IMG/VR virus record: IMGVR_UViG_3300043450_000376 | Length of the DNA stretch: 64,000 bases | Source of the DNA: a virus | Lineage: Duplodnaviria; Caudoviricetes | Reading direction: 5' to 3' (one strand) | Shown here: positions 12,695-58,259 of the stretch, piece by piece | Layout of the letters: each line of letters opens with the position of its first letter | Position numbering within the stretch: position 1 is the first letter of the stretch | Program-made: the position numbers and the translations under genes | The notes under the pieces: generated by a model | Databases searched by the model: none | Told to the model about the DNA's origin: nothing | What the model saw: only the letters and a program-made list of their open reading frames with translations

Positions 12695-13546
12695 TTATTT
12701 ATCTGATAAGTAATCTTCAAGGAACTCAGTAAGCTTCTCGGAATCAGATAATTCTGTGTAATCCATTTTGTATTGTTGGTTAAATCTTTCGGCTAATAGA
12801 TTAGAAGCCTTTGTTTTATTGTGCTGAATTAATAGATTAATACCAAGCCAATCTGCCTCCTGCTCCTGTCTTGTTGAATAGTAAGGTTCGCCTTGATGAT
12901 TTGCAATTGAGTGACCAATTTCATGAGCCTCAACCGCAAGCATATGATCCTTTGTAAAATATGATTCGCTTACCTCTGATCCATCAAAATAGATAGTTTG
13001 ATTTTCTAAATTGGCAAATGCAATTCCAAGTTTTTCAAAGTATGGTTTAGTAGTATTGTATAAACTATCATTTGGATAGGTAATAACTAGAGTCCAGCTT
13101 GGATCCAGTTGAGCTGACATTGTAATAGGTTCTTCAATACTTTCACTAAGGCTTAGGTCTCTAACTTCATCTTCAGTATCTTCGTTTCCCTTAAATGGAT
13201 CTTTAAAATTAACTTGGCCCTTGACTTTGCTTGCATTACGACCCATCATGTCTCTCCATAATTCTCTAACATCAGGCTGGCCCATTTGATCGGCTAACGC
13301 GGCTGAATAAAATCCTTTGTCTTCGATTTGCGCAATTTCAAACCATTTCTCAACTCCAATTCTTTTTCCGTGTTTATCACGAATTGAGGCTAGGTGCTTA
13401 AACCTTAAAAACAGGTCTGTATTATAAGTATCACCTATGTATTTACGTTGAGGATTCAGCTCAGACAGTTTTTTTGTATATGGCTTTGCTGGTGCGATTG
13501 CTTCGGTTATCCAGTCAGTAAATTGTTTAACTTGCATGTTTTGCAT
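12695..13546 (-). CDS. HExxH zinc-metallopeptidase-like late protein
   Basis: AHEIGH plus downstream EQEAD; leader MQVKQFTDWITE|A. Confidence 0.6.
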   Translation of the reverse strand: MQNMQVKQFTDWITEAIAPAKPYTKKLSELNPQRKYIGDTYNTDLFLRFKHLASIRDKHGKRIGVEKWFEIAQIEDKGFYSAALADQMGQPDVRELWRDMMGRNASKVKGQVNFKDPFKGNEDTEDEVRDLSLSESIEEPITMSAQLDPSWTLVITYPNDSLYNTTKPYFEKLGIAFANLENQTIYFDGSEVSESYFTKDHMLAVEAHEIGHSIANHQGEPYYSTRQEQEADWLGINLLIQHNKTKASNLLAERFNQQYKMDYTELSDSEKLTEFLEDYLSDK

Positions 13547-13622: not shown

Positions 13623-14246
13623 ATGAAACCTAGATTCCATGAAGAAGACGACCTGGAGTTCAACCCAGACGACTTTGACACAATTCCAGCTGCAAACTTT
13701 GATTTTGCAGATGAGTTTGAACCAATTGAAAAAGAAGAACCAGAGTATGGATCTGGTGATGAAGCTGAGCTAAAATCACTACAAGCTAAACTTAGAGAAC
13801 TTCCAAAAGGTCACCCTATGAAAAAAGATCTTGCAATTAAAATACTAGATCTACATAAAAAACTTTCAGCCGAAGATACTGGTTATAATAGCCGTAGAGA
13901 ACAGGCTGAAGTAAAAGCGCAAAGAGCGAATCAGAAAAAACAGCAATGGATTGATTCTGTAGTAGACGACGAGCCCTCCTACAATGGTTTTGAAAGTAGA
14001 CGTGTTATGAAGTGCTCAGACTTTATTATCTTAGAAAAGAAAAGAGCAGAAGTTTTAAAGGATGCCGATAAGAAATTTCCAAATCTAAAAAAAGCAGAAA
14101 TGAAAAAAATGCTTAGAGATCAGGAAGCTGGCTCAAAAGATTTTAAACAAAAATCTAAAAAATATTTTGGTTGGGCGAAGGATCCTGAAGCAGCAGCCGC
14201 TGCTTTTATAAGAAAAGCGACCGGCAAAGAACCAAAAGATCTTTAA
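13623..14246 (+). CDS. hypothetical protein (acidic N-terminus, basic C-terminus)
   Basis: 207-aa ORF followed by terminator. Confidence 0.65.
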   Translation: MKPRFHEEDDLEFNPDDFDTIPAANFDFADEFEPIEKEEPEYGSGDEAELKSLQAKLRELPKGHPMKKDLAIKILDLHKKLSAEDTGYNSRREQAEVKAQRANQKKQQWIDSVVDDEPSYNGFESRRVMKCSDFIILEKKRAEVLKDADKKFPNLKKAEMKKMLRDQEAGSKDFKQKSKKYFGWAKDPEAAAAAFIRKATGKEPKDL

Positions 14247-14258
14247 TTAAAAATTTAG

Positions 14259-14286
14259 AGCCGAGCGTAAAACCTCGGCTTTTTTT
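14259..14286 (+). terminator. intrinsic terminator
   Basis: AGCCGAG-N8-CTCGGCT + T6. Confidence 0.75.
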
Positions 14287-14290
14287 AGCT

Positions 14291-14773
14291 ATGTTGAGAC
14301 ATTTTTTAATTATAATTATCCTGTTTTTTATAACTAATTGGGCAAATGCTCAAATAGTTGTCGATAAAGGCGGAGACAGTTGGTCGACTAAAGTTGATTC
14401 AGCTCTAGTTTTAATTAAGAAAACTTCGCCGAAGCATTGGCAAATGGTTCAAGAATCGTGCAATCATATTTCAATGTGGAATGGAAAAACTTCAACTACA
14501 CAACCTGGCAAAGGAAGTGAACTGGGTACAATCGTAATATCCAGGGATGATTTTAAATTAAATTCAATAAACAATATAGCTGCAGTAATTGTTCACGAGA
14601 GCAAACACCTATGGATCTCTATTAATACTATTAATTATAGTAGCGGTAGTGCAGAAGAGGCAGACTGCTATTTATGGGAACTTGAATTTTTACAAATGAT
14701 TCCAAACGTTGAACCATGGTTAGTCCAACATGTCTTTAACCAATTTATTGGTAACACTGAACCTCGTAAATAA
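14291..14773 (+). CDS. secreted HExxH metallopeptidase-like protein
   Basis: signal peptide ...WANA|Q; VHESKH; EEADC. Confidence 0.55.
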   Translation: MLRHFLIIIILFFITNWANAQIVVDKGGDSWSTKVDSALVLIKKTSPKHWQMVQESCNHISMWNGKTSTTQPGKGSELGTIVISRDDFKLNSINNIAAVIVHESKHLWISINTINYSSGSAEEADCYLWELEFLQMIPNVEPWLVQHVFNQFIGNTEPRK

Positions 14774-14860
14774 AAAAGGGCAGAGATAGTAGCGAACTTT
14801 TCTCTGCCCAACCCGTGAACTAGTCCCGGTCCTAAAGTGAGGTATTAAACCTCAACTATC
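14772..14860 (-). ncRNA. candidate structured RNA/3' element containing 23S rRNA H69/H71-like segments and a terminator hairpin
   Basis: stems GGGCAGAGA/TCTCTGCCC (14778-14809) and TGAGGT/ACCTCA (14838-14854); GATAGT(14785-90)/ACTATC(14855-60); CGGTCCTAA and GTAGCGAA. Confidence 0.5.
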
Positions 14861-15496
14861 TTAATCTTTATCAGGATCTTTTTCGTCGTCGTCTTCTTCA
14901 TCGTCTTCATTTGGTCCAGAGATTTCGTCTAATTCTTCTTGAACTCTCTCGTGTAACATCCAAGTATTTTCATCTCGCCAATCGTTAAGAGTTTCTACAA
15001 GTTCACTACAAAAAGAGTCAATATCATCTAAATTATTCATGGAACCGCCAGTAAGATCTTCAATTGATATAAATTCATAACTACTTAAATCGCCATCGGC
15101 AATGTCTAATTGCGAAACGTCCTTTGAATCAATTTGAAATGCCCATGAATGGTTAAATCCTTTAATTAAATCTGTAACTGGGGCTAAGCCCAATTTCCAA
15201 AGTCTAACTAATTCTGGTGATAATTCGGATTCATCATCTTGAAAAGCAAGCCTAAGTCTAACTGCATAACTTGCATAAACCCTAGGTTCTTCGCCCTGAA
15301 AGTTTAGGTCATCAATATTCCAATCCTGATCAATATGTAGCGTGCTATTATTTTCATCTAGATATGCCCGGTAACCGCTCCAGCTATCCATACCATCTGC
15401 AATTTGTTCTAAGATTTCGTTAAATGCTGAATCGGCTGGTTCTTCTAGATAACCGTCGCTTTCATTTATAAATTGATTAAATCTTTTAATTTTCAT
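14861..15496 (-). CDS. acidic late protein with capsid-targeting-like leader
   Basis: MKIKRFNQFINE|S; RLWKLGL motif. Confidence 0.7.
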   Translation of the reverse strand: MKIKRFNQFINESDGYLEEPADSAFNEILEQIADGMDSWSGYRAYLDENNSTLHIDQDWNIDDLNFQGEEPRVYASYAVRLRLAFQDDESELSPELVRLWKLGLAPVTDLIKGFNHSWAFQIDSKDVSQLDIADGDLSSYEFISIEDLTGGSMNNLDDIDSFCSELVETLNDWRDENTWMLHERVQEELDEISGPNEDDEEDDDEKDPDKD

Positions 15497-15497
15497 A

Positions 15498-16787
15498 TTA
15501 ATCTAAATATTTTGCAAGTTTTCCAACCTCAGCGTAATCGCCTGCATCTAGAGCAGCATCCAGTAATTCCTGAATTTCTCTTTTACTTAATTGTGATAGG
15601 TCAGCTGGTTCGTTTTGAGTAGGAGCCATTCCAAAATCTGGAACCTCTTCATCAAATTGGCCTCTTTCCCAATCCTTTATCTCTTGTTGAATTTCTAGAA
15701 TAATATCTTTTATTTTTGCAGTTGCTCCAGCATCTTCACTAAAGATTTCTTTCATTAACTGTAAAAATTGCGTAGATTCCATTTGCATTAGTTTGCCAAA
15801 TACATGTTCTCTAATATTTTCAACCTCAACGTTATCTGTAAATCTGTTTATAAAATCTCTAAGATCTGCCGCTAAATATGGCCCATATCTTAAATCTTCT
15901 AATTCATCGCTAAGTGTTCCAGTACTTGCAATCACCTTTTCTGCCTCTTCTTCATCTTCGGGAATTGCAGCAGCACCAATTAATTTGTAAATACCTTTAA
16001 TTGTTTCATGTAATAACATTGCAAAATCTGTACCAAGTGCAGTAATGGTAGGTTCCATTTCATTAAGCGAATCTTCGATTTCTGGAGTTTGGATATCTCC
16101 ACTCTCTAAGGACTTAATGATTTCGTCTGCAGTTTGCTCGTCATTCTTAATTGGTTTCCAATCAACATCAACTGAACCACTAAATCCACTCTTATCTCGT
16201 TCCCACATCTGCTTTTGAACTTCCATTGGAATTCTCCAATCAAGTGCAGATGCAATATCTGTAATTTTCTTAAGAAGATCTATCATTTTTGCAGCACCAG
16301 CTGGTCCAAAAATCTTAATCATTCCATCCATAGTTTCAGGTAAAGCTAACATAAGTTTTGCATTTTTAGCTTCGCCCTGCATAATTGCATTGCCTATTTT
16401 ACGTTTATTAATTGCGGCAATTGTACCTGCATCAGTAATTTCCTTTTGGTCAGCTGGTGTTTCCATTTCAACTGGTTCCATCATTTGTTGGATTTCTCCC
16501 TCTTTTGGAAATTTAATAATTAATTTAGTTTGACCCAAGATTGAACCATACTGTTGCAAAATAATATATTCTGCAAGTTTTTCTAATTGAGCCTTAACCT
16601 GAGGGGTTTGCATTTGCTGAACTTGTCCAACCAACTGCATAAACTGACCCATTTCTCTGCCCAGTCTCTGCTCAGTACCTTGAACATCTTGCATTGCTCG
16701 GCGTTCAACTCCTTTTAAATATTCGCCAGGCGTGCCAGGATTTCCCTGTAAACTTGCCTCTTGTAAAAATTGTTTTATTGTTTTCAT
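15498..16787 (-). CDS. late protein with capsid-targeting-like leader
   Basis: MKTIKQFLQE|A; 429 aa helical. Confidence 0.7.
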   Translation of the reverse strand: MKTIKQFLQEASLQGNPGTPGEYLKGVERRAMQDVQGTEQRLGREMGQFMQLVGQVQQMQTPQVKAQLEKLAEYIILQQYGSILGQTKLIIKFPKEGEIQQMMEPVEMETPADQKEITDAGTIAAINKRKIGNAIMQGEAKNAKLMLALPETMDGMIKIFGPAGAAKMIDLLKKITDIASALDWRIPMEVQKQMWERDKSGFSGSVDVDWKPIKNDEQTADEIIKSLESGDIQTPEIEDSLNEMEPTITALGTDFAMLLHETIKGIYKLIGAAAIPEDEEEAEKVIASTGTLSDELEDLRYGPYLAADLRDFINRFTDNVEVENIREHVFGKLMQMESTQFLQLMKEIFSEDAGATAKIKDIILEIQQEIKDWERGQFDEEVPDFGMAPTQNEPADLSQLSKREIQELLDAALDAGDYAEVGKLAKYLD

Positions 16788-23994: not shown

Positions 23995-24273
23995 ATGAAA
24001 AAATCAAGTATTGTTGCCGCCGTTGCAACTGGGTTAGTACTTTTAACCATTGCGGTTAGCTCAATTGTGTCAAACCGCAAACTGGCTGGGCAAGTCGCCG
24101 CACAAAAGCAATTTATTGAACAGCGCGAGGCCCTAATTGATTCGCTGCATGCCGAACTATTTATTGCCAATGTTACAATTGCCCGTACTGAATTTACGCT
24201 CGAGTGGCTAAACGAGGTCAATCCACCAGCATTTATTCAGTTTAGTCAGTACTATGATCATCAGACTGAATAG
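23995..24273 (+). CDS. N-anchored membrane protein
   Basis: N-terminal TM. Confidence 0.55.
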   Translation: MKKSSIVAAVATGLVLLTIAVSSIVSNRKLAGQVAAQKQFIEQREALIDSLHAELFIANVTIARTEFTLEWLNEVNPPAFIQFSQYYDHQTE

Positions 24274-24308
24274 TGGCAAATAAATAACTCAAATAAATCT
24301 ATTATAGG

Positions 24309-24944
24309 ATGCCACAACACATTAAATTATTTGAAAGCTGGTTAGGCGATATCGCAGATAAGGTAAAGTCTGCCTTTACTGGCGAACCGGGAGCAGACTC
24401 TGCCGAAGTCTCAGATTCGGAATTTAAACAGGAGTTTAAACAAGAAATTGAAGATATTTCAGCCCAAGCGACCCAGCCACGAATGGACCCGCTAAAAGAC
24501 GACAAATATTTTGTTGTACACCATACTGCAGGTCGAGGCCGTGCTGAGGATGTAGTTAATGTTTTAAATGATCGCGGACTTGGAGTCCAGTGGGTTATTG
24601 ATCGTGATGGTAAAGTATTTCAAACCTTACCTGATGGTGTAGTTGGCTGGCATGCTGGTCATAGTGATCAAAAGGATGCCCCACATGACTTGCAGAATCA
24701 AACTGCTCAGGGCGTAGAGGTTATTGCTAAAGACGATGCTGATGTTTTACCTATCCAGGTGGTTGCAGCTTTTAAACTAATGAAATATCTTGGTTATGAA
24801 AAGGATGCAGTTTGGGGACATGGTGAAGTAACCTATAATAAACAGGCAACTGAGGGCCAAACTATAGTTGATTACTGGCGAGAAAATTTTGATAAGACCC
24901 CAGCCCAGGTTGAGGCGGATCTTATTGGTGGAGACCTAGCCTAG
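24309..24944 (+). CDS. N-acetylmuramoyl-L-alanine amidase (Amidase_2/PGRP type)
   Basis: VVHHTAG, VQWVIDRDG, GWHAG, GVE, WGHGEV Zn ligands; leader MPQHIKLFE|S. Confidence 0.8.
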   Translation: MPQHIKLFESWLGDIADKVKSAFTGEPGADSAEVSDSEFKQEFKQEIEDISAQATQPRMDPLKDDKYFVVHHTAGRGRAEDVVNVLNDRGLGVQWVIDRDGKVFQTLPDGVVGWHAGHSDQKDAPHDLQNQTAQGVEVIAKDDADVLPIQVVAAFKLMKYLGYEKDAVWGHGEVTYNKQATEGQTIVDYWRENFDKTPAQVEADLIGGDLA

Positions 24945-24971
24945 CTAGACTCACCTATATCTTAAATTACT

Positions 24972-24996
24972 AAAGAGGCGCCTAGCCTCTTTTTTT
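24972..24996 (+). terminator. intrinsic terminator
   Basis: AAAGAGGC-N5-GCCTCTTT + T run. Confidence 0.7.
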
Positions 24997-25062
24997 ATGC
25001 AGTATTCCTGGACCCCGCCGAGTGCGCCCGCGCAAGGGGGTTGGGGTTAAGAGTGGTGAGGC

Positions 25063-25635
25063 CTAGCGCCTACCCCAGCGCCAACTACGACCATGGGCAT
25101 CAAGTGCAACTTGGTACATAAATCTGGCCAGGGCTGTACCCGGCTCAGTTAAGCCATCGAATATAACCTGACGGTTAGAGGTTGGTTGGCCAATTCGACC
25201 AGAGTTACGTAGAGAACCTGGGAAAATCCAGTATTCAAACCTAGAGCTCAATGAGGTCTCCATCTCCATTTGACGCTGCCACTGCTGCAGCTCCCCTTTT
25301 ATCTTTGCATAGCGTGCCTCTTGAGCAGGGCTTAAGCCCTTAGGCAAGTCAGCAGTAAAGAGAATTTCGGCTGCATCAGCTGGGCTAATTTTAAGCACGA
25401 CTGTACCATTATCCGCCTGGCGGCCTGTTGCCCAATCCCGCCACTCTAGCCCAAGATCCGCAAATAGGGTCTTGAGGGCGGCAACAAATTCGCTACGATA
25501 CTGTTTATCCAAACCAAGCTCCTGTAATTTCTGTTTAAAATCCTCGGGTTCTATTAAGCCTAGTGCCAACATGCGCCTAGCTGCGGCAATCTCTTCAGCG
25601 GATTCAAATAGGCGGTATGGTTTTAAATATTTCAT
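25063..25635 (-). CDS. late protein with leader and RLxxLGL-like motifs
   Basis: MKYLKPYRLFE|S..RRMLALGL, KLQELGL. Confidence 0.65.
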   Translation of the reverse strand: MKYLKPYRLFESAEEIAAARRMLALGLIEPEDFKQKLQELGLDKQYRSEFVAALKTLFADLGLEWRDWATGRQADNGTVVLKISPADAAEILFTADLPKGLSPAQEARYAKIKGELQQWQRQMEMETSLSSRFEYWIFPGSLRNSGRIGQPTSNRQVIFDGLTEPGTALARFMYQVALDAHGRSWRWGRR

Positions 25636-25637
25636 AG

Positions 25638-26288
25638 TTAGTTGGTTTCTTCTATTTCAACACCGATAAATGGTACAAAGACCTTGTCCATCCACTTGAT
25701 AATTTCGTCTGCTATCCACCTACTCTGTGCAACCGTGCTTGGTATCCATTGATACCCACCAATTGGTCTTTCCCAGAAATAGTCAGGTACCGTAATAAGC
25801 TGACTACTATCAAGTCGACCGGCTGCCTTTTGAAAACGAATTACCAATCTGCAATTCCATACCTTATAACTATAGTTAACGCCCTTATCAATATAGACAC
25901 TATAATAAGGATCGCGCCCGCCTTTACCCTGCTGGTGGATCCTGATTTCGTCAAATGCCAGTTTTTCTACATCTAAATTAGGGTAGTGACTGGCTAACCG
26001 CTCCTTAACTAGCAATACTACATCATCTTTAATCTTGCTCCAATCCTCTAGATCAATCATACCTAGATCAACAAGTCTAACATATTGGGTCCAGAAAGGA
26101 TCCGCAGATTCGGTAATAGCAGGGGTATTGTCATGCCAGCACTTGTGACATAGATAGGGATTGGTTTCGCCGCCATCCAAGCCATCCGCTAGATTCCAAC
26201 TCCAGTTACAGCTTTTACCACTGCAGTGCACAACACCAGACTGGACCTCTTCGGTAATAAAATCTTTGTATAGTCTGATATGTTTCAT
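25638..26288 (-). CDS. late protein with leader, Zn-ribbon and RLxxLG motif
   Basis: MKHIRLYKDFITE|E; CSGKSC..YLCHKC; ITE|S..VRLVDLGM. Confidence 0.65.
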   Translation of the reverse strand: MKHIRLYKDFITEEVQSGVVHCSGKSCNWSWNLADGLDGGETNPYLCHKCWHDNTPAITESADPFWTQYVRLVDLGMIDLEDWSKIKDDVVLLVKERLASHYPNLDVEKLAFDEIRIHQQGKGGRDPYYSVYIDKGVNYSYKVWNCRLVIRFQKAAGRLDSSQLITVPDYFWERPIGGYQWIPSTVAQSRWIADEIIKWMDKVFVPFIGVEIEETN

Positions 26289-26291
26289 AGA

Positions 26292-26717
26292 TTAATATCT
26301 ACTTGTTTTGATGCCTTTACCTGCTGTACTAAACTTAGCTAGGGTTGCTGTATCGGATTTAGCAAGACTCTGCTGTATTGCTGAAATAACTACCTTAACC
26401 ATTTCTTGTAGATCTGGAGTTGCATCGTCTACAATTGGATCTGCACCTAACCAGTCTGGATCAGGAGTTACCCCGTCCCTCTTGTCTTCAGCATAGATAT
26501 CAGTAACCTTAATAACTACCATGGCAGTTATCTTATCTCCAGTTGCCTTTTCTAAGCTGGTCTTAAGTTTTTCACGGTTAATATCTAGATAACCTCTAAC
26601 TGCTGACCAGTCTGTTACCCCCTCGATAGGTTCCACGGTACCACCTAATTGAGTAGCCAATTGATCTAAGGCTACTGCCTCTACTAGATACTCACTAAAT
26701 CTTTTAATCCTGTTCAT
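26292..26717 (-). CDS. late protein with capsid-targeting-like leader
   Basis: likely start MNRIKRFSEYLVE|A at 26717; ATAAATA at 26743-26749. Confidence 0.65.
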   Translation of the reverse strand: MNRIKRFSEYLVEAVALDQLATQLGGTVEPIEGVTDWSAVRGYLDINREKLKTSLEKATGDKITAMVVIKVTDIYAEDKRDGVTPDPDWLGADPIVDDATPDLQEMVKVVISAIQQSLAKSDTATLAKFSTAGKGIKTSRY

Positions 26718-26759
26718 AATAATATTGTTATAGTTATAAAGATATTTATTAGCAAAAGA

Positions 26760-27127
26760 CCTGGACAACAGCCCCCAAGCCAGGGGAAATTCGCCACCAG
26801 TAGAAATGCCCCGAGGAAAAGCCCCTGGATAAATGAATCTAGGCAAAAAGGTCTGGACCACTAGCCAAGCCGGGGAGACAAGAGAAAAAAGTAAAAATGC
26901 TTGCTTCCCCCTGGCTACAAAAACTTATACCAGGGATAGGCCCCGGGGCAGCCCCTGGACAGCTCCCCAGGGTCACCCAGGAGCAGTCTGGACCTGTCCT
27001 GGTGTACCCCAGGAGTCACCTGGAGACAGCTGCCAGGACGGTCCCCAGGGCAGCCAGGAGCAGTACCAGACCGGTCCTGGGTAGGTATTATATAGCCTCC
27101 TGGGCTAGCCTGACCAGCAGCTCCAGG
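26760..27127. repeat. GC-rich non-coding array of 17 CCWGG sites
   Basis: CCWGG at 26760,26780,26824,26910,26930,26954,26967,26977,26998,27009,27019,27033,27045,27054,27076,27099,27123. Confidence 0.85.
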
Positions 27128-27222
27128 CAGGTCTCCAGCCGGTCCAGCAGGAGGTATTGCACTAGCCCTGTACCTACTCTGCGCAGGTAAACCTATACCC
27201 CTAGCCTAGTATAATAACTATA

Positions 27223-27528
27223 ATGCTAAACCAAAAGGAGATGCCTGAATACTTATCTACACTAATTAAAGACCGAATCCTTACTGGGCTGGAAGGAGTA
27301 GGTCGAGACCAGCAGGCGATACGCCACTGTCTAGGCAAGATAGTCGAAGACCTAGGTAAAACAGCAGGCGAAGAGGATTGGAGTGCAGAGTATCTTGAAT
27401 ACTTATTACATGCTCTATACCATGCCTGTATTACTGCGCTCGACGTGGCGGTTGCTAGGGAAGAATATGAATGGGCTGCTGAGTTATTCTATCGGGTTAA
27501 ACGCGAAGCAGCTATAAACAAACTATAA
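27223..27528 (+). CDS. small protein with UVR-like motif
   Basis: AVAREEYEWAAEL; after AGTATAAT. Confidence 0.55.
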   Translation: MLNQKEMPEYLSTLIKDRILTGLEGVGRDQQAIRHCLGKIVEDLGKTAGEEDWSAEYLEYLLHALYHACITALDVAVAREEYEWAAELFYRVKREAAINKL

Positions 27529-27531
27529 CAT

Positions 27532-27717
27532 ATGCAGATACAAGACTTTAAACCGGGAGATACTATCCAATGGTTACAGAAATTCGAAGAGCTAGAAGCC
27601 CCTATCACGGGTATTGTAGAAGTAGTAGCACCAGACGTGCTAACTGTGCGCGATAACCTTGGCCAGTTTTGGCAGGTAACAGCTGAAGATAGCCCGACTA
27701 GCTGGGATAATTGTTAA
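27532..27717 (+). CDS. hypothetical SH3-like small protein
   Basis: FKPGDTIQW..GIVEVV..LTV. Confidence 0.5.
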   Translation: MQIQDFKPGDTIQWLQKFEELEAPITGIVEVVAPDVLTVRDNLGQFWQVTAEDSPTSWDNC

Positions 27718-27758
27718 TAACTTTATTTTTGGGTGTCAAGTTAATTGGTTATATTTAC
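27711..27758 (+). promoter_or_regulatory. early promoter, copy 1 (TGTTAATAAC box 38 bp upstream of TATATTTAC)
   Basis: TTGTTAATAACTTT..GTGTCAAG..TATATTTAC. Confidence 0.75.
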
Positions 27759-27779
27759 TCTATAACTAAATGATATACG

Positions 27780-28082
27780 ATGATACACAAAGAATTTAAA
27801 TTAACCGTTACCGAACCTATTCGCGAAGAGTCAGGTCGTAGTGTAAAGCCTGTCCACTGGAGTATTGGGCAAGAGTTAACCCTTAGCGAGGCCGAGTTTA
27901 GCAGGCTAAGAGGTGGCGAAGTTGTCGAGAGATTTACCAACGAAGGGAGACTCAGATTTGATAAGCACCATTTTGCAAATGGGGTCAGGGTAATTGAAAT
28001 AGAAATTACCGAGAGCGAGGTAAAGCTTGGTAATACTAGAGGTCGTAAAGAGGTAAAGCTATTTTTCAACAGCAGCATATGA
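27780..28082 (+). CDS. hypothetical early protein
   Basis: directly follows promoter. Confidence 0.6.
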   Translation: MIHKEFKLTVTEPIREESGRSVKPVHWSIGQELTLSEAEFSRLRGGEVVERFTNEGRLRFDKHHFANGVRVIEIEITESEVKLGNTRGRKEVKLFFNSSI

Positions 28083-40930: not shown

Positions 40931-42052
40931 ATGTTATCACAAGCACAATTTAACGAGGCAAAATTAGCCGCAATCAACACTGAACCGCTGACTAAACCCG
41001 TAATGCTAAGTGAGATCAAATTGAGTGACAATTCACAGAAGGATGGCTTCATCCACTTGAATGACTCAAGGGTCCCAGCTAGCGGCGCGTTTTTTAAACA
41101 GCTGGCTTCCCTACTTAACATCAACCAAACCTTAAACTCTAAGTTTGAGAAGAATGGTGATGCTGCAATCGGTAATAAACTTATCGGCGCAGTCAAGCAC
41201 TACACAGAGAACCGAGGTGGAGATGTTCCCCTAATGATGGTTGCAAATCGTGATCATCGCGAAATTACAGGTATCGTAAAGGCAGACAAGTTTGCACGTA
41301 TCTCTAATGAGACTCTATTTAAAACTGCAGAAGGAATCCTTAACGAGGTACCGGACATGCATATTGAGTCTATTGACAATGGTAACGGCACCAGTCGTAT
41401 TAACTTGATCCATACCAGTGAGGTAGGTTTTGAGCGTATCGGCCCAGACGAAGTATTCCGTTTCGGAGTTTCATTAGTGAACAGCCCTACACAAACTCAA
41501 GTAGATGATTTCTTCTACAGATTAGTATGTGCTAATGGCGCAGTTGCTAAAGACATGACAGCAGCCTTCCAATTAAAACAGGCAAATGCTACAGGTATTG
41601 CCGAGTTATTCCAATCCCTTAAAGCTTATGGTAAAACAGGTTTTGTACCGCGTGCCTTTGCTGAAAGATTAGAACGTGCAACCGGTACACGCGCAAGTTT
41701 GCAAGAGGTACAAAGAGCAGTGGACTCCGTAGTAGGTAACCTTAAACATGAGGATCCGGAAATGAGACGTCGTCTACAGGAAAGCGTAGTGGACAACCAC
41801 TTCCCAATGTATAAGTCTACCATGGCCAGAGTATTTAATGCAGGCCATAACCCAGATTTCTTAACAGACAAGCAAAAGAGTTTCGTTAAGACAGGTATGA
41901 GTGTATGGGATCTTGTCAACGAGTTGACTTGGTTAGGTAGCCATAACACTGTTGAAGAGTATGAAAACCGTGCACGCTTTAAAGCTGCAGGTGGAAGCCT
42001 CTTCGCTAAGAGTAACTATGATTTAGAAGCAGCACAGTTTGCGACTATATAG
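40931..42052 (+). CDS. DUF932/DUF945-like protein
   Basis: GVSLVNS....FYRLVCANG; WDLVNELTWLGSH. Confidence 0.6.
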   Translation: MLSQAQFNEAKLAAINTEPLTKPVMLSEIKLSDNSQKDGFIHLNDSRVPASGAFFKQLASLLNINQTLNSKFEKNGDAAIGNKLIGAVKHYTENRGGDVPLMMVANRDHREITGIVKADKFARISNETLFKTAEGILNEVPDMHIESIDNGNGTSRINLIHTSEVGFERIGPDEVFRFGVSLVNSPTQTQVDDFFYRLVCANGAVAKDMTAAFQLKQANATGIAELFQSLKAYGKTGFVPRAFAERLERATGTRASLQEVQRAVDSVVGNLKHEDPEMRRRLQESVVDNHFPMYKSTMARVFNAGHNPDFLTDKQKSFVKTGMSVWDLVNELTWLGSHNTVEEYENRARFKAAGGSLFAKSNYDLEAAQFATI

Positions 42053-42076
42053 TTTGATGATTGATTGATTAGGATT

Positions 42077-42100
42077 AGGCCCTCTACAAGAGGGCCTTTT
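42077..42100 (+). terminator. intrinsic terminator ending the early island
   Basis: AGGCCCTCT-ACA-AGAGGGCCT + T run. Confidence 0.8.
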
Positions 42101-42231
42101 TCTTTTAGGATAAAACCGTACTCCGTAGTAGAGTACAAGATCTTGGAGTTCTTATCCAGCTATTTAAATCTAGACCGTTTCAATAGCAAACCCAAAGGGA
42201 TCTGCGCAAGCTGATCCCTTCTTTTTTGGAG

Positions 42232-42360
42232 TCAGCGACCTTGTCCTTGATACTTCTTAGGTTTCTGTTCCTTAGGACCGAAGCTCTTCTTTGCCTTGCC
42301 AACCTTCTTTACAGTAGGACGGAAGGTAGAGCCAGCAGTTGCGCCTTTCTTTGTTGCCAT
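42232..42360 (-). CDS. small basic late protein (42 aa, not in ORF track)
   Basis: MATKKGATAGSTFRPTVKKVGKAKKSFGPKEQKPKKYQGQGR; TATAAATA at 42385-42392; hairpin 42195-42220 downstream. Confidence 0.7.
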   Translation of the reverse strand: MATKKGATAGSTFRPTVKKVGKAKKSFGPKEQKPKKYQGQGR

Positions 42361-42524
42361 TTCTAGACCGGGTTATTTTGCAATTATTTATAAGTTATAG
42401 GTATAATAGAAATAGGCCCAAAAGCCCGGGCCCATGCCGACGGGGCATAGGTATTTATGGTGACCCCGCTCCGTGGGGATCCCCGGCCCCTGGAGAAATG
42501 CTCCTCTATTAGGGCCGCCAGAAA

Positions 42525-42582
42525 TTGTTAATAACTTTATGCAAAAAGATTGTCAGGAGTCATGGAAAAGTGGTATATTAGC
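42525..42582 (+). promoter_or_regulatory. early-type promoter (48-bp spacing) with no convincing downstream ORF
   Basis: TTGTTAATAACTTT..TTGTCA..TATATTAGC. Confidence 0.6.
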
Positions 42583-42734
42583 TATAGGTAACCGGTTAAG
42601 AACTCCGACCCAGGGCTGGACCCAGCATAAGGATCCAGAAGAGTATACTCCGACCTGCCTCTCTCTAGGGGGCAGGACTAATGTACTACTCTATACAACG
42701 CATTAGTTTTGAACCAGTTAGACAACCCTAAGTG

Positions 42735-43367
42735 CTAGATACCAAGCTCCTTGGCGCTAGCGATTATATCGACCAGCTCCTCCTTGATTTCGTCGATATA
42801 TTCCTGTCGGCCAACCTTCGGCTGGATTATATGTATATCTACACCATGATAAATCAGTACCCGTTCAAGTATATCCCAAGCAAGGAATCTGGCTAGCCTG
42901 TCCGGGGTCTCGATAATCAGGGTGCTGACCTTTTTACGTACAACCAGATCCATAATTCGGTTCAAGCCCGGTGCATTATCATCTAGCCTGTTCGCGCGCC
43001 TAACCTCTTGGATTACCTCATCGACCCTGATACCCCGGGCTGTGCAGTAACCCTGTACCCGGTCTAGCTGGCTACGCAGCCTGCTCGTACTGGATATTCC
43101 GGCTGCCCCAGAGTCTGGAATGGGGCTCGTTCTACAATATATTATTACTAGCCTGTCTTGAGGTACTCTACTCCCTAGTAGATATAGTATCTGGTCTGAG
43201 TCTATATAGACCCTACCATTAACCCGGTTCTTCATAGGTGTTATCTTACCCTGTTCTATATAGCGACCTAGAGTTCGGGTAGTTACACCTAGTCTCTGCG
43301 CGGCTTCGCGACTACTTATTAATTCGCCAGTAGGCAAGGTCTGCGGTATCGTAGGTTCTATCTTCAT
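42735..43367 (-). CDS. tnpA: IS607-type serine recombinase (MerR-like HTH + resolvase catalytic domain), no adjacent tnpB
   Basis: SSREAAQRLGVTTRTL.RY, YCRTS nucleophile, DRLARF; GATAAATAA at 43374-43382. Confidence 0.8.
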   Translation of the reverse strand: MKIEPTIPQTLPTGELISSREAAQRLGVTTRTLGRYIEQGKITPMKNRVNGRVYIDSDQILYLLGSRVPQDRLVIIYCRTSPIPDSGAAGISSTSRLRSQLDRVQGYCTARGIRVDEVIQEVRRANRLDDNAPGLNRIMDLVVRKKVSTLIIETPDRLARFLAWDILERVLIYHGVDIHIIQPKVGRQEYIDEIKEELVDIIASAKELGI

Positions 43368-43500
43368 ATAGGGTTATTTATCTAGCCCCATACAGACAGC
43401 CTGGAACCCGGTGTCAGCGGATGTCTACTAGTGTCTACAGTTCCGGGTGGATCGCCCGACCCGAGGATTCCGTTGCGGGCCCCGAGTCGAGAGGCGCACC

Positions 43501-43630
43501 ACTCCGTAGTCCTTAAGTAGGACCAAGTGGGTCAGTCTGGGTCGGCTGGCTGCTGGCACTCCGTAGTCCCGGTATCTAGGCTAGGTGCTGGCTGGGGTCT
43601 AGCCTATATAGGTTACTCCGTAGTCCCGGT
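43501..43630 (+). repeat. three ACTCCGTAGTCC direct repeats at exact 57-bp period
   Basis: copies at 43501, 43558, 43615; last two extend to ACTCCGTAGTCCCGGT. Confidence 0.85.
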
Positions 43631-43843
43631 CTGGGCAGGTAGAGTCTATATAGGATTGGTGATAATATAGAGAAGAGTAGACTAGGAGGGTCTTATACCT
43701 AGGGTTAGGCTTGTTCTTTCTATTATTAATATAAGTAGAGAAAGTATCTATAGAAACAGGAGTAGTCTAGATATAGGTAGTATTATTATTGGTAAAGAGC
43801 CGCCCCTTTGAGTTTAGAGGCGGCAAAATACCTAGACCCGGTT

Positions 43844-44458
43844 TTAGCAGGCAAAATAGCCATGTACCCAGCCGCAATTATTAACCTGTAAGGTTGTACC
43901 GCCAGATGGAATATCAACATCATTAACATGGTACCAGCTACCCCCACCAAGGAAGGGCTGAGTCAAGGACTGGTCTAGCCAGATGCGGTCGACCTGTTGC
44001 CACTCCTCGCGCTGTACCCATACCGTCTGATTATACGGCCCTTGTAGATTACACTGGGTTGAGCTTGGCTGGGTGATCCTGACCTGGATAGCCTCGGGCT
44101 GGGCAATAGTTTCAATCGCTGCAATACCCGACGCGTTGTATTTTATTAGCTGGCTATCAATGCGATACCAGTTACCGTTAATTAAGGTCGCAATCTCTTG
44201 GCTTAGGCCGCTATCTAGATAGAGTCGGGCGCCAACCTCTAGGGTAGGGCTGCTTGGCCATACTTGAGCAAAGCTGCTATTGTTGCCGGCTAGACTCCAC
44301 CAGTCATTAATATCGCCATCGCCTTGTGCGCCAACAAATAGGCTGTCAAATTCATAGCCGTATCGCAATTGTAGAGAGTTGGTACAGGCAACAGTTAGTG
44401 TGGCGGCTGCTCCACCTGCTCGGCGGCCTAATAGGGTATAGTAGTAGTTATGATTCAT
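43844..44458 (-). CDS. hypothetical late beta-rich protein
   Basis: ATAAATA at 44482-44488; W/Y/G-rich. Confidence 0.6.
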   Translation of the reverse strand: MNHNYYYTLLGRRAGGAAATLTVACTNSLQLRYGYEFDSLFVGAQGDGDINDWWSLAGNNSSFAQVWPSSPTLEVGARLYLDSGLSQEIATLINGNWYRIDSQLIKYNASGIAAIETIAQPEAIQVRITQPSSTQCNLQGPYNQTVWVQREEWQQVDRIWLDQSLTQPFLGGGSWYHVNDVDIPSGGTTLQVNNCGWVHGYFAC

Positions 44459-44481
44459 AGGTATAGAGACTTTGTTATAGC

Positions 44482-44503
44482 TATTTATTATCCGGATAAA
44501 TAA
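44482..44503. promoter_or_regulatory. back-to-back T4-type late promoters
   Basis: TATTTAT-TATCCG-GATAAATAA between divergent genes. Confidence 0.65.
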
Positions 44504-44525
44504 TAAGAAAAGAGTTCTACTCTAT

Positions 44526-44948
44526 ATGAAGGCAAAATCATTTAGTCAATTTATTACCGAAGACCACAACGATGATGCACAACAACATCAGGTTTATCGC
44601 AGACTACAGGGGCTTGGACTTGCTGACTCTCCACTTGAAGGATTGGAGAAGATGTTGATACAGCGCCGCTGGAAATGGGAAAAGGTTGATAGCGACCGCA
44701 CCTTTGCAATTGAGCTAACCCGATGGGAAGCTGAGTCGACCTATCTGTCGCGAATGGGTGCGCGCCACCAAAAGAAATATCCTAATGTCTACTATTTTAG
44801 TGTAACTGATCTAGGTGCCGAGCCCAATCAGGTTCGAATCCTGTGGTATTCAAGTAAAGACTCTGTTAAGGAGGTGCAGGTTGCCGCAGAGCCAGAGGTA
44901 ATAGTACGCAAGATTGAACAATTATTTGGTGAACGCAGTGCAGATTAA
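44526..44948 (+). CDS. late protein with leader and RLxxLGL motif
   Basis: MKAKSFSQFITE|D..RRLQGLGL. Confidence 0.7.
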   Translation: MKAKSFSQFITEDHNDDAQQHQVYRRLQGLGLADSPLEGLEKMLIQRRWKWEKVDSDRTFAIELTRWEAESTYLSRMGARHQKKYPNVYYFSVTDLGAEPNQVRILWYSSKDSVKEVQVAAEPEVIVRKIEQLFGERSAD

Positions 44949-45375
44949 CAGAGCCAACATATCAGAAGCATTTTCATTTGGGGCATGGCAGCGACTACAG
45001 GATCTGGGCCTAAGCGAAGAAGGTATTGTTGCAAAGCGTATTGAACTATATCGCAAGCTGGTAAGTCAGGTTGTAGATCCAGAAGAATTTAAAAGGGTTC
45101 TAGTTGAACTTGGTCTCGCTATTATTAAGGTTAACGTTACCCGCAATAAAGGCTATGCTATGCACCAATCGGTTGCCATTGCTGGGCCAGAAGAGGCGTT
45201 TGAAGAATTAGATAGGTGGTGGCATAGTCAAACTGGTCGAGACTGTCCACTATACCTGCACCTTGAGCCTCACCATGCAAATAGCCCGCTGGTTAGGGAT
45301 CGTTGGGAAAGGGCAGTTTCAAGCGGAACCCCATTTACAGTTGGTGCGCTTAGCGACCATGCTGCAAAATTATAA
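44914..45375 (+). CDS. protein with RLxxLGL motif
   Basis: NISE|A..QRLQDLGL; start codon uncertain. Confidence 0.55.
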   Translation: MNNYLVNAVQINRANISEAFSFGAWQRLQDLGLSEEGIVAKRIELYRKLVSQVVDPEEFKRVLVELGLAIIKVNVTRNKGYAMHQSVAIAGPEEAFEELDRWWHSQTGRDCPLYLHLEPHHANSPLVRDRWERAVSSGTPFTVGALSDHAAKL

Positions 45376-45384
45376 TTAAGTACT

Positions 45385-46260
45385 ATGAAAAAATTAATAC
45401 TATTAACCCTATTGGTCCTAACCTGCTTTACTGCCACTTCACAAGTTGCGCAAGATACGGTTAAGCTTACTCCGCAAGAACTATTTGAATTTAATTCAGA
45501 GTGGTTGAGCTTGGGCACAACACAGTCCTATATTGATTTTTCAAAGGATGTCCTAAATACATCAGATCTTTCGCTTGGTATAGTTGGTCGTAAGGTTTCA
45601 ACTACCCTCAACTTGACCCTTAACAGGGCGTCAACTAGTGGTAAGTGGAGCCATGCTGGTATACTATCCATAAATCCAGGTTGGAAATATTATGGTGTAG
45701 GTTATGGCCTTACCCGAAAGCGGGCCAATCGCAGCACAACTTTACAAGTAGTTGGTTCGGCCGACTTTGATTTTCAGAAAAATATTAACATTTCGCTAAT
45801 CGATATGGTTAAAACCCGCCGCTTTGGTAACTTTGGTTATAACCTAACTGCAAGCCAAACCTGGTGGGGTGAGTGGCAAGGCCCATGGCAAGGTGAATAC
45901 ACAGTAGATTCGCTAGGCAATTGGGTTGCTAACATCTATCCAACGATGCCACCTTCTAGACAGCTAACAACCCGTGCGATGATTGTCTATTCCTATCCGG
46001 TTAAATTAAGACGGGTTACCCTTTCACCACAACTTATTTTAGTTAGTGATATTCATAAATCATTTAGTGATGGTACTCTTAATATTAGTTATCTAGCAGA
46101 TTTTAACATTGATGCCTATTATGGGGTACAGGCTGACTGGAAAATAGGCAAGCACTTTATCCTAAATAGCGGTCTTAGATTTAATAGCACAATTGAAAAA
46201 AACAGTCAAGATTTTAAAAAGAGTAATCCAATTCTTTTTTCAATCGGCACCGGCTTCTAG
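45385..46260 (+). CDS. predicted outer-membrane beta-barrel protein
   Basis: signal peptide ..TATS|Q; alternating beta strands; C-terminal ILFSIGTGF. Confidence 0.55.
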   Translation: MKKLILLTLLVLTCFTATSQVAQDTVKLTPQELFEFNSEWLSLGTTQSYIDFSKDVLNTSDLSLGIVGRKVSTTLNLTLNRASTSGKWSHAGILSINPGWKYYGVGYGLTRKRANRSTTLQVVGSADFDFQKNINISLIDMVKTRRFGNFGYNLTASQTWWGEWQGPWQGEYTVDSLGNWVANIYPTMPPSRQLTTRAMIVYSYPVKLRRVTLSPQLILVSDIHKSFSDGTLNISYLADFNIDAYYGVQADWKIGKHFILNSGLRFNSTIEKNSQDFKKSNPILFSIGTGF

Positions 46261-56423: not shown

Positions 56424-58259
56424 ATGGCATCAACAAAAGAAATTAGTAAGAAATACCAGCTGCTTGATGAGATCGAGCACGTCCTAAAAAGACCTGGCAT
56501 GTATATTGGTTCAACTAAACCTCATACAAGTCAGGAGTGGATCCTTAAAGATGGTATGTATGAGAAAGAGGAATTGACTTACAATCCCGGCTTTCTAAAG
56601 TTATTTGATGAGATTATCTCAAACTCAGTCGACGAGCATAAACGCTCAGGTAAAATTAACCAGATCAAAGTTGTTATTAAAGACAACCTTATTTCAGTTT
56701 GGGATAATGGCGGAATTCCAGTAGTTCAGCATCCAGAACATAAAGTCTGGATTCCCGAATTAATCTTTTCTAACCTTAGAGCTGGCTCTAATTTTAATGA
56801 TGATGAAGGTAGAATTGTAGCTGGAACAAATGGAGTTGGTGCATCACTAGTTAATATCTTTTCTAATAAGTTTAAGATTGAAACAGCTGATGGTAAAAAG
56901 AGACTAGTTCAGCTTTTTACCAAAAACATGTCAGTTAAGGGTGTTGCAAAGATTTCTGCATCAACTCAAGGTTTTACTGAAATTTCATATGAAACAGATT
57001 TAAGCAGATTTGAAATGAAATCTCTTGATGAAGCTCATATTAAAATGATGCGTAAACGTGTTATTGATATTGCAGCAGCAAATCCGGGTCTTAAGCTAGA
57101 ATTTAATGGCGAGAAATTTAGATTTAAAAATTTCAAAGAATACGTTGAGCTCTATGTTCAAGCTCCAGTTTGGGAAAAGAGCGAGCATTGGGAATTTGCA
57201 GTTGGCCATTCAAAAGATGGCTATCAATCTATTTCATTTGTTAATTCAATTGAAACTAAAGATGGCGGTACCCATGAAAACTATATCTTAAATCAGGTAA
57301 TTGAAGACCTAAGAGTCTTAATTAAAAAGAAACATAAGGTTGAAGTTAAACCTTCGGAAATTCGTAATCATGTTTTCTTATTCATAAACTGTACAGTAAT
57401 TAATCCGGCGTTTTCTTCTCAAACCAAAGAAAAACTAATTACTGAACCTAAAGAATTTGGAACAGCCCATACTGTTTCAGACAAATTTGCTAAAGCAGTT
57501 TTTGCATCAGAAATAATTGAATCATTATTAGATTGGATTCAACAAAAGAAACAGGCTGAAGAGAGAGCTGAGTTACGTAAACTTAATAAATCTCTTGCAA
57601 CAACTAAAGTTCTTAAGTTAATTGATGCTAAAGGCAAGGACAGAAGCAAGTGTTCGCTTGGAATATTTGAAGGTATGTCTGCCCTATCAGCAGTTCGTAA
57701 GTTTAGAGATCCTCAGGTATTTGGAGCATTTCCACTTAAAGGTAAATTTCTTAATGTAAGTGAGATGAAGAATACTGAAGTTATTAAGAACGAAGAAGTA
57801 GTTCAGCTGATGGCATCGTTAGGAATTAAATTAGGAGAAGATCCCAAGGAAATGCGTTATAATAAAATCCTAATCTATACTGATGCTGATCCAGATGGAG
57901 ACTCGATTGCAGGTTTACTAATTAACTTTTTTAATAGGTATTGGCCAGAATTAGTAACAGAAGGCAAGGTCTTTAAAGTAATGACGCCGCTTGTTGTTGC
58001 AAAGAAAGGTAAAGAAATCATGCCATTTTATACAGCCGATTCTTATTTAAAATGGGAAGCTGAAACTAAAATGACAGGCTGGACAGTTGAATACAAAAAA
58101 GGTCTTGCAGCACTTGAAGATGCAGAGTATCGAGAGATTATTCATAACCCAAATTTAGTACAATTAACTAACGATAAACAGGCAGCGAAATCACTAGACG
58201 ACTGGTTCGGAAATGATTCAGCTCCTCGAAAAGCACGTCTTTTACAATTTTCAATATGA
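56424..58259 (+). CDS. type II DNA topoisomerase, ATPase/TOPRIM subunit (GyrB/ParE; T4 gp39+gp60-like)
   Basis: EHVLKRPGMYIGS, DEIISNSVDE, GTNGVGA, FEGMSA, PLKGK, TDADPDG. Confidence 0.95.
   Translation: MASTKEISKKYQLLDEIEHVLKRPGMYIGSTKPHTSQEWILKDGMYEKEELTYNPGFLKLFDEIISNSVDEHKRSGKINQIKVVIKDNLISVWDNGGIPVVQHPEHKVWIPELIFSNLRAGSNFNDDEGRIVAGTNGVGASLVNIFSNKFKIETADGKKRLVQLFTKNMSVKGVAKISASTQGFTEISYETDLSRFEMKSLDEAHIKMMRKRVIDIAAANPGLKLEFNGEKFRFKNFKEYVELYVQAPVWEKSEHWEFAVGHSKDGYQSISFVNSIETKDGGTHENYILNQVIEDLRVLIKKKHKVEVKPSEIRNHVFLFINCTVINPAFSSQTKEKLITEPKEFGTAHTVSDKFAKAVFASEIIESLLDWIQQKKQAEERAELRKLNKSLATTKVLKLIDAKGKDRSKCSLGIFEGMSALSAVRKFRDPQVFGAFPLKGKFLNVSEMKNTEVIKNEEVVQLMASLGIKLGEDPKEMRYNKILIYTDADPDGDSIAGLLINFFNRYWPELVTEGKVFKVMTPLVVAKKGKEIMPFYTADSYLKWEAETKMTGWTVEYKKGLAALEDAEYREIIHNPNLVQLTNDKQAAKSLDDWFGNDSAPRKARLLQFSI

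Follow-up and report, generated by a model that had tools for sequence, protein, structure and literature searches.

The minus strand of a 64-kb stretch of DNA from an uncultured virus of the class Caudoviricetes (IMG/VR record IMGVR_UViG_3300043450_000376; the whole stretch is hereafter referred to as the window) encodes a predicted folded RNA of about 93 nt at the 87-bp spacer between the convergent open reading frames (ORFs) 14291-14773(+) and 14861-15496(-). Judged from sequence comparison, this element belongs to an RNA family that is new, being widespread and structured, and absent from Rfam and from the literature searched. Its exposed bases were complementary to neighbouring segments of domain IV of 23S rRNA. 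We tentatively propose that the RNA, embedded in the 3' untranslated region (3'-UTR) of a phage transcript, pairs with the 23S rRNA of the host, a proposal that we regard as possible rather than established.

On the RNA strand, from 5' to 3', the element consisted of a stop codon, 8 nt, hairpin P1, the single-stranded UUUAGGA, hairpin P2, a short linker, hairpin P3 and the U-tract UUUUUUAU (Table 1). Two of its segments are referred to as block A, in the junction running into P2, and block B, in the loop of P3. Both places had been pointed out in an earlier note made from the letters of the window alone. The 23S-like strings quoted there, CCGTGAACTAGTCCCGGTCCTAAAGT (14813-14838, plus strand) and GTAGCGAA (14789-14796, within the 14-nt loop of a 9-bp stem), were found in place, as was a second hairpin (GAGGT/ACCTC, 14839-14853).

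Fold and covariation

A covariance model (R1) was built from 26 sequences of the architecture found in the window (type 1). It matched the window at 14771-14865 with 88.1 bits (E 5e-26) as a single copy, the next-best match in the window reaching only 14.6 bits. The R1 alignment comprised 67 matches from 65 loci, and covariation was counted pair by pair over 61 distinct sequences. In this alignment, 85% of the cells were able to pair, compared with 58% in shuffles. The covariation score was 0.652 (0.182 in shuffles; reached by none of 500), and it dropped to 0.11-0.27 when the register of the 3' partner was shifted. Double-sided changes were present in all five pairs of P1 and in all eight modelled pairs of P3, the latter stem showing four Watson-Crick pair types at every position. 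In P2, the outer CCG/CGG pairs were fixed and the inner pairs varied among relatives (GC, UA, AU). The predicted probability of being unpaired was 0.75-0.96 for the UAGG of block A and 0.75-1.0 for the blocks overall. As far as the alignment can tell, the stems hold shape only, their sequences drifting with compensation, and the predicted exposed UUAGGAC, the P2 loop UAGUU and the P3 loop UUCGCUAC are conserved.

Conserved homologues with covarying stems, which the earlier note had called for, are thus present in phage metagenomes, and one of its own grounds for dropping the idea, the lack of homologues with conserved rRNA-like segments, does not apply. The note had also described a pairing of GATAGT (14785-14790) with ACTATC (14855-14860) that would compete with the terminator stem. 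Both strings were present and can form a 7-bp pairing in the window, but the competing pairing was not family-wide. The mean longest pairing across the family was 4.21 bp, compared with 4.04 bp in shuffles, and the pairing was rejected as not conserved.

Distribution and genomic contexts

Searches with the flanking proteins returned three IMG/VR contigs, in which the spacer was more conserved than the coding flanks. An exact 19-mer of the element was found in 42 IMG/VR stretches on many different contigs of 8-288 kb. When these were aligned, the stem sequences of P1 and P3 differed yet always paired, and the P3 loop, which was not part of the query, was invariant in all 42 loci. With the two blocks and a variable gap as a pattern, at least 120 loci were retrieved, nearly all of them structured relatives. 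In total, the family was present in IMG/VR contigs, metagenomes and two GenBank megaphages, corresponding to hundreds of uncultured large phages.

Two architectures were distinguished. Type 1, that of the window, contained P1, block A, P2, and P3 plus the U-tract. Type 2 contained a closing stem around block A, an optional P2, a P3 with the same loop but without the U-tract, and a predicted pseudoknot in which a hairpin loop pairs with a conserved 3' tail. Compensating changes in this pseudoknot included GCU/AGC, GGU/ACC, GCCAC/GUGGC and a 7-bp swap in one relative (L100). Downstream of type-2 members lay late-promoter-like boxes in place of leaders.

One match per genome was found in each of seven large phage genomes, namely all five large IMG/VR genomes checked, one of them complete (353 kb, with terminal repeats), and the GenBank megaphages LR745206 and LR756502 (L373 and L374; approximately 635-640 kb). 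The same two uncultured megaphages (630-640 kb) were the closest matches of the topoisomerase II subunits of the window (56424-59611; 55% identity). The exception was locus L012, in which two copies, 785 nt from each other, enclosed an ORF of 130 aa directly after nrdA (L012:6663-7563). This arrangement looks like a gene insertion by recombination between duplicated elements.

The ORFs upstream of the element on the same strand belonged to about 50 unrelated families, with no constant neighbour gene. The most common was the ribonucleotide reductase alpha subunit (nrdA; 33 contexts), followed downstream of the element by nrdB or an inserted ORF. Further, contigs over the region of the window were found in four freshwater metatranscriptome runs, including a 984-nt contig that bridged both genes and the spacer; such contigs are uninformative as to strand, transcript ends and level.

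No cultured phage with the element was found among 50,697 GenBank phage records by megablast and blastn, which returned only chance matches of 18-24 nt. When bacterial genomes were searched with the two-block pattern, one true member (L213, on a contig of a metagenome-assembled genome) was present among the 120 matches listed; the other listed matches were due to chance or were antisense of real 23S genes. In Rfam 15, the sole overlap in window positions 14000-15600 at E up to 10 was SorY (14.5 bits; gathering score 111), and fourteen loci with relatives gave no match at E up to 0.1. Models of small self-cleaving ribozymes (twister, pistol, hatchet, hammerhead and HDV-like) matched neither the window nor the fourteen relative loci. 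ARAGORN found neither tRNA nor tmRNA in the whole window. No description of the element was found in the literature, searched by sequence words and by topic.

Transcribed strand

Three lines of evidence bear on the transcribed strand. First, a U-tract followed P3 in 71 of 132 family members. Second, G.U pairs outnumbered A.C mismatches by 58 to 6 in the helices of 233 type-2 relatives, the register of which was fixed by the invariant loops; in the window, a G.U pair of P2 would become an A.C mismatch if read on the plus strand. Third, of 149 distinct contexts, 126 showed an ORF on the same strand whose stop codon lay no more than 60 nt ahead of block A. In contexts with nrdA and nrdB, the genes on either side also shared the strand of the element. 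On this evidence the predicted RNA is made from the minus strand of the window, as the earlier note had claimed. Since the three lines agree, the RNA would be antisense to the rRNA-like strings, and the readings as an rRNA mimic or as a decoy for a homing endonuclease, which the note had offered in addition, lose their basis.

Complementarity to 23S rRNA domain IV

The 23S rRNA of Escherichia coli was used as a reference, in which positions 1920-1937 read CGGUCCUAAGGUAGCGAA. The near-invariant unpaired core UUAGGACC was complementary to positions 1921-1928 and UUCGCUAC to positions 1930-1937. Block A as a whole (UUAGGACCG) complemented 1920-1928, and its type-2 form (CCUUAGGACCG) complemented 1920-1930. 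In addition, the loop-side UAGUU of P2 was complementary to the loop AACUA of helix 69 (H69; 1912-1916). For one fixed 9-mer and one fixed 8-mer to match the same strand of 23S within 25 nt, a chance of approximately 1.7e-5 was calculated analytically.

Longer complements were present in other members. The longest exact complement was 19 nt in L101 (1911-1929), followed by 18 nt in L079, both of which are near-exact antisense of H69. L287 carried a 13-nt exact complement across the junction, and L099 matched 15 of 16 nt of 1930-1945. Exact 8-mers shared with the antisense rRNA clustered at the block sites, whereas sense-strand matches were scattered. Cofolding of the element with 23S 1900-1945 gave a free-energy difference (ddG) of -14.5 kcal/mol, compared with -4.0 +/- 2.7 kcal/mol for shuffled targets. 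The target stretch was identical in the 23S genes of Acidobacteriota, Bacilli and Terriglobia met incidentally, and a sense copy of the 18-nt target was absent from five phage genomes. The transcript that the earlier note had supposed to be antisense to rRNA is borne out in this sense for H69-H70 of 23S, on the minus strand ending at the U-tract.

The likeness to 23S is far less conspicuous in the window alone. The 31-nt 23S motif given in the note was used as the query for a chance test. It shared 12 exact 9-mers with the window, where about 11 were expected, and a longer exact 11-mer of the motif occurred elsewhere (42270-42280, within a small ORF). At 14, the gapped local score was the best in the window, yet it was reached in one of 20 simulated windows. 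Taken from the window alone, the likeness is therefore weak, at or near chance, and would pass as a post hoc resemblance. It gains significance in the sequence comparison only once relatives are added, because the rRNA-like blocks are the near-invariant, predicted unpaired parts of a family with covarying stems and are adjacent on 23S. That the likeness arose purely by chance within a genuine RNA motif, as its near-chance level in the window and its post hoc recognition might suggest, is scarcely credible in view of two independent invariant blocks that are adjacent on 23S (joint chance about 2e-5), of complements reaching 13-19 nt in other members, and of shared words clustering at antisense and not at sense sites.

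A resemblance to 16S rRNA was also observed. The hairpin loop of the type-2 pseudoknot, GCGGCUGCUG(GC), present in L099, L350 (5400-5531), L338, L063 and others, complements positions 517-528 of E. coli 16S (the 530 loop) without a mismatch, and the type-2 3' tail AGUGAGC resembles antisense of 16S 504-510. Targeting of 16S by this loop was rejected; loop variants break the complementarity to 16S yet covary with their own 3' tail. Judging from these variants, the resemblance probably reflects internal pairing or ancestry.

Conservation of the blocks in samples collected without them

Two samples were collected without recourse to the blocks. In the first, nrdA homologues were found by protein alone, giving 73 distinct downstream regions. 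The element was present in 13 of these, and each block was exact in 12 of the 13, with UUAGGGCC and AUCGCUAC as variants. The second sample comprised 246 type-2 relatives from viral and metagenome scans anchored only on the pseudoknot hairpin and tail. Block A was exact in 185 of them and differed by one change in roughly 40 others, A-to-G changes, which still pair with U, being the most frequent. Loop B was exact in 150 and carried one change in 18.

Besides UUCGCUAC (150 relatives), the apical loops of P3 in type 2 fell into the classes GGAGUCGUGCCC, UUACGCCAG and GGCCGGGAAUCC (L457, L487, L541, L574 and others). The loop class UUACGCCA complements 23S 1971-1978 exactly over 8 nt, although UGGCGU may serve as its partner within the RNA. 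By this comparison of sequences, block A is the constant core of the predicted RNA, and loop B, though common, can be exchanged as a module.

Possible pairing with host 23S rRNA

The proposed mechanism would operate as follows. The RNA would form the 3' end of the minus-strand transcript whose last gene is ORF 14861-15496, with P3 and the U-tract terminating the transcript and shielding its 3' end, and it may be cut off from the mRNA. The exposed loops would then pair with consecutive parts of 23S, namely 1912-1916 in the loop of H69, 1920-1928 in its 3' strand and the following linker, and 1930-1937 at the start of H70. H69 is exposed on the free 50S subunit, and the RNA may act on nascent precursor 23S or on free 50S subunits. 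Binding could block the folding of domain IV or the formation of bridge B2a, and the effect might be altered 50S assembly, altered subunit joining or a changed fate of the host ribosome in infection. More tentatively still, large phages might carry a dedicated anti-ribosomal folded guide RNA that places two or three loops on H69-H70 and steers ribosome assembly, subunit joining or rRNA turnover. The frequent nrdA context could speculatively be seen as a link between rRNA turnover and nucleotide supply.

Of the options raised in the earlier note, an antisense or anti-ribosome RNA is the one favoured by orientation, conservation and complementarity; from these we infer ribosome binding itself. 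To our knowledge, it would have no natural precedent, in bacteria or phages, as an RNA acting by base-pairing with rRNA. It would represent a new viral means of taking over or inactivating the bacterial ribosome through RNA instead of protein, and the translation-related gene sets known from huge phages would gain an RNA member. With a target that all bacteria conserve, one set of invariant loops would suit any host, which would explain their retention in unrelated large phages. The pairing site would also mark where natural selection had arrived at an antisense target on the ribosome, in a region aimed at by synthetic antisense antibacterials. Even if the link to rRNA is only ancestral, this widespread, single-copy and strongly covarying RNA family outside Rfam is a candidate for structural and functional study.

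Several observations weigh against pairing with 23S. The best 23S duplex site (-24.9 kcal/mol) was barely ahead of the runner-up (-23.2 kcal/mol). In the mature 50S subunit, much of 1920-1937 is paired or buried, so that only nascent or partly unfolded rRNA would be open to binding. The UUCGCUAC-like loop was missing in 71 of the 246 type-2 relatives; about a dozen of these also lacked block A and look like chance matches, and the rest carried other loop classes. Because loop B is replaced and P2 is absent in some members, not every rRNA-complementary part can be essential. Block variants such as UCCGCUAC and CCCUAGGACC were not wobble-compatible with the rRNA, and a comparison of A-to-G changes opposite U (21 sequences) with other changes at the same two A positions (6) was too weak to decide. 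The invariance of the blocks could reflect any constraint on a sequence once captured from rRNA genes (rDNA). Finally, the blocks stand in a permuted order when compared with a plain antisense. This order would be no obstacle to the proposed pairing, because each loop, upstream or downstream, would face the target segment in the corresponding position, as in the topology of exon-binding sites (EBS) and intron-binding sites (IBS), EBS2/EBS1-IBS2/IBS1.

Alternative explanations

The foremost alternative, which we consider unlikely if by no means far-fetched, is that the loops bind a partner other than rRNA, such as a conserved protein or a small ligand, or form a catalytic or tertiary core in the manner of a small self-cleaving ribozyme, and that the complementarity is a frozen trace of captured antisense rDNA. 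Covarying stems with a few invariant loop and junction bases are what is seen in riboswitches and small ribozymes, the loop and tail of the type-2 pseudoknot covary internally, and loop B is exchangeable (variants B2-B4). The antisense-like flanks of L099 and L101 would fit rDNA ancestry, and a tandem duplication could explain the permuted order. Against this stand the type-1 blocks of 8-9 nt, which have no internal partner (pairing between A and B reached at most 3 bp by inspection) and are predicted to be unpaired. The roughly 50 upstream gene families without a constant neighbour and the convergent genes flanking the element in the window argue in the same direction, as does the fact that known ribozyme and riboswitch models matched nowhere tested. 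Nor does this alternative explain why only the rRNA-complementary exposed bases stayed frozen while the stems drifted. A riboswitch with a terminator platform was rejected, as the element has no 5'-leader position, the genes upstream are of about 50 unrelated families, and in the window the next gene is convergent, so that there the element cannot be a riboswitch for a downstream gene.

An elaborate intrinsic terminator or 3'-end stabiliser, spread as a mobile regulatory cassette with conserved bases of no further role, appears improbable. P3 and the U-tract are canonical in shape where both are present, the element follows a stop codon in 126 of 149 contexts, and the two L012 copies flank an inserted ORF as in cassette shuffling. 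However, the seven large genomes contain one match each, though such genomes need many terminators, and ordinary terminators in the window and in nrdA relatives lack the blocks. Type 2, which makes up nearly half of the members, has no U-tract yet keeps block A and mostly loop B. Moreover, termination requires neither an invariant 8-nt loop nor a 9-nt junction.

A functional plus strand is very improbable, whether as a 23S H69 mimic decoying an H69-binding factor or as a DNA decoy for an I-CeuI-type endonuclease. Loop and flank bases do equal sense 23S, the P2 stem resembles H69, and conserved loops on free stems would suit a mimic too. A mimic would need the plus strand, however, and the G.U excess, the U-tracts, the upstream stop codons and the direction of the nrdA-nrdB genes favour the minus strand. 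RNA-type covariation is not expected of a DNA site. The target of I-CeuI-type enzymes is a collinear 23S rDNA site of about 26 bp (approximately 1911-1937). In the window the blocks are permuted, with the GTAGCGAA block 31 bp upstream of CGGTCCTAA and not adjoining it, and the alignment is gapped and mismatched in its 5' half, leaving no collinear site.

Comparison with known RNAs

Several bacterial small RNAs, such as CpxQ, SroC and DapZ, are derived from 3'-UTRs and share the intrinsic terminator of their mRNA. The element resembles them in lying right after a stop codon on the same strand, in ending with a terminator-like hairpin and U-tract, and in having unpaired, seed-like conserved bases upstream of the terminator. 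It differs in being phage-encoded, with one match per genome checked across diverse phages and gene contexts, and in complementing rRNA rather than mRNA, with one seed inside the terminator loop.

In CopA/CopT, RNA I/RNA II and OxyS-fhlA (the last with two kissing loops), targets are recognised through exposed hairpin loops. Similarly, the stems of the element covary and its fixed loop bases complement the presumed target, with two or three loops addressing neighbouring segments. The sequence thus has the hallmarks of a loop-mediated trans-acting antisense RNA, the pairing with 23S being predicted. Unlike the targets in those systems, which are plasmid transcripts or mRNA leaders, the presumed target is a universally conserved rRNA, and the element is encoded in trans, without an overlapping gene. 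The likeness to the EBS2/EBS1-IBS2/IBS1 interaction of group II introns is one of topology only, in that two loops address adjacent target segments in the same 5'-to-3' order; the element of about 93 nt contains neither ribozyme domains nor an intron-encoded protein, and has a terminator-like end.

Complementarity to rRNA is also known from eukaryotic viruses. Motif 1 of the calicivirus termination upstream ribosome-binding site (TURBS) complements helix 26 of 18S rRNA, the barley yellow dwarf virus (BYDV)-type 3' translation element has a 17-nt 18S-complementary tract, and these tracts have been proposed to tether ribosomal subunits. As with the element, a conserved short tract of viral RNA near ORF ends is complementary to conserved rRNA loops. 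Those elements target the small subunit and act in cis, whereas the element points to domain IV of the large subunit in a bacterial host, and its single match in each genome checked rules out a role in general translation.

Synthetic antisense oligomers and peptide nucleic acids (PNAs) against H69 can reach their target and inhibit translation. The region targeted by these molecules, which two reviews mention (PMC12828698 and PMC12916000), is identical to that of the element, but they are man-made, short and unstructured; we know of no natural counterpart described so far. Finally, the promoter-early stem-loop (PeSL) cassettes of T4-type phages are multi-copy units of a promoter plus a terminator. 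Like them, the element is a conserved intergenic stem-loop module able to flank inserted genes, as in L012. In contrast to PeSL, it was found once per genome checked, has no promoter part and carries invariant rRNA-complementary loops.

Features of the locus and its surroundings

The coordinates of the element and its parts are listed in Table 1. On the plus strand, the P3 stem is formed by GGGCAGAGA (14778-14786) and TCTCTGCCC (14801-14809). This 9-bp stem followed by UUUUUUAU, 84 nt past the stop codon, has the shape of a predicted intrinsic terminator; a pattern scan for terminators skipped it because its 14-nt loop exceeds the 8-nt maximum of the scan. The U-tract overlaps the stop codon of the convergent ORF 14291-14773. 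The spacer fold was more stable than shuffles on both strands (z -3.6 and -3.1).

Table 1. Parts of the RNA element in the window (sequences and remarks refer to the RNA strand)
Feature	Position	Strand	Remark
Whole RNA element	14771..14865	-	3' untranslated end of the putative minus-strand transcript, from the stop-codon region to the U-tract
Stop codon UAA of ORF 14861-15496	14861..14863	-	P1 begins 8 nt downstream
P1 hairpin GAGGU-UUAAU-ACCUC	14839..14853	-	Pairing kept, sequence variable
Block A, UUUAGGACCG	14827..14836	-	Single-stranded junction running into P2; exact complement of 23S 1920-1928 (CGGUCCUAA)
P2 hairpin CCGGGA-CUAG-UUC(A)CGG	14813..14829	-	G.U pair possible only on the minus strand
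P3 hairpin	14778..14809	-	9-bp stem with 6 G-C pairs; 14-nt loop holding block B
Block B, UUCGCUAC	14789-14796	-	In P3 loop; exact complement of 23S 1930-1937 (GUAGCGAA)
U-tract UUUUUUAU	14770..14777	-	After P3; together with P3, intrinsic-terminator-like 3' end

Searches of Pfam, PHROGs and NCBIfam gave no useful names for the neighbouring proteins, and the genes upstream on the transcript, a late operon in the view of the earlier note, matched no family. The product of ORF 14861-15496(-) is a protein of 211 aa with an acidic C-terminus. A 283-aa ORF (12695-13546, minus strand) showed weak zinc-metalloprotease signatures (M48/M78, phrog_87), below curated cut-offs. A G+C-rich 9-bp hairpin with flanking A- and T-runs was found at 14257-14282, between ORFs 13623-14246 and 14291-14773. 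It resembles a simple terminator acting in both directions, lacks the conserved blocks and gave the second-best R1 match mentioned above (14.6 bits).

Two regions (24001-28000 and 42001-46000) formed islands with a G+C content of 45-47%, compared with about 36% for the window, and may be acquired DNA. The octamer TATAAATA was strongly depleted in the window (1 occurrence; 9.1 +/- 2.8 expected), and its single copy (42385-42392, minus strand) was located 25 nt upstream of a 42-codon lysine-rich ORF (42232-42360).

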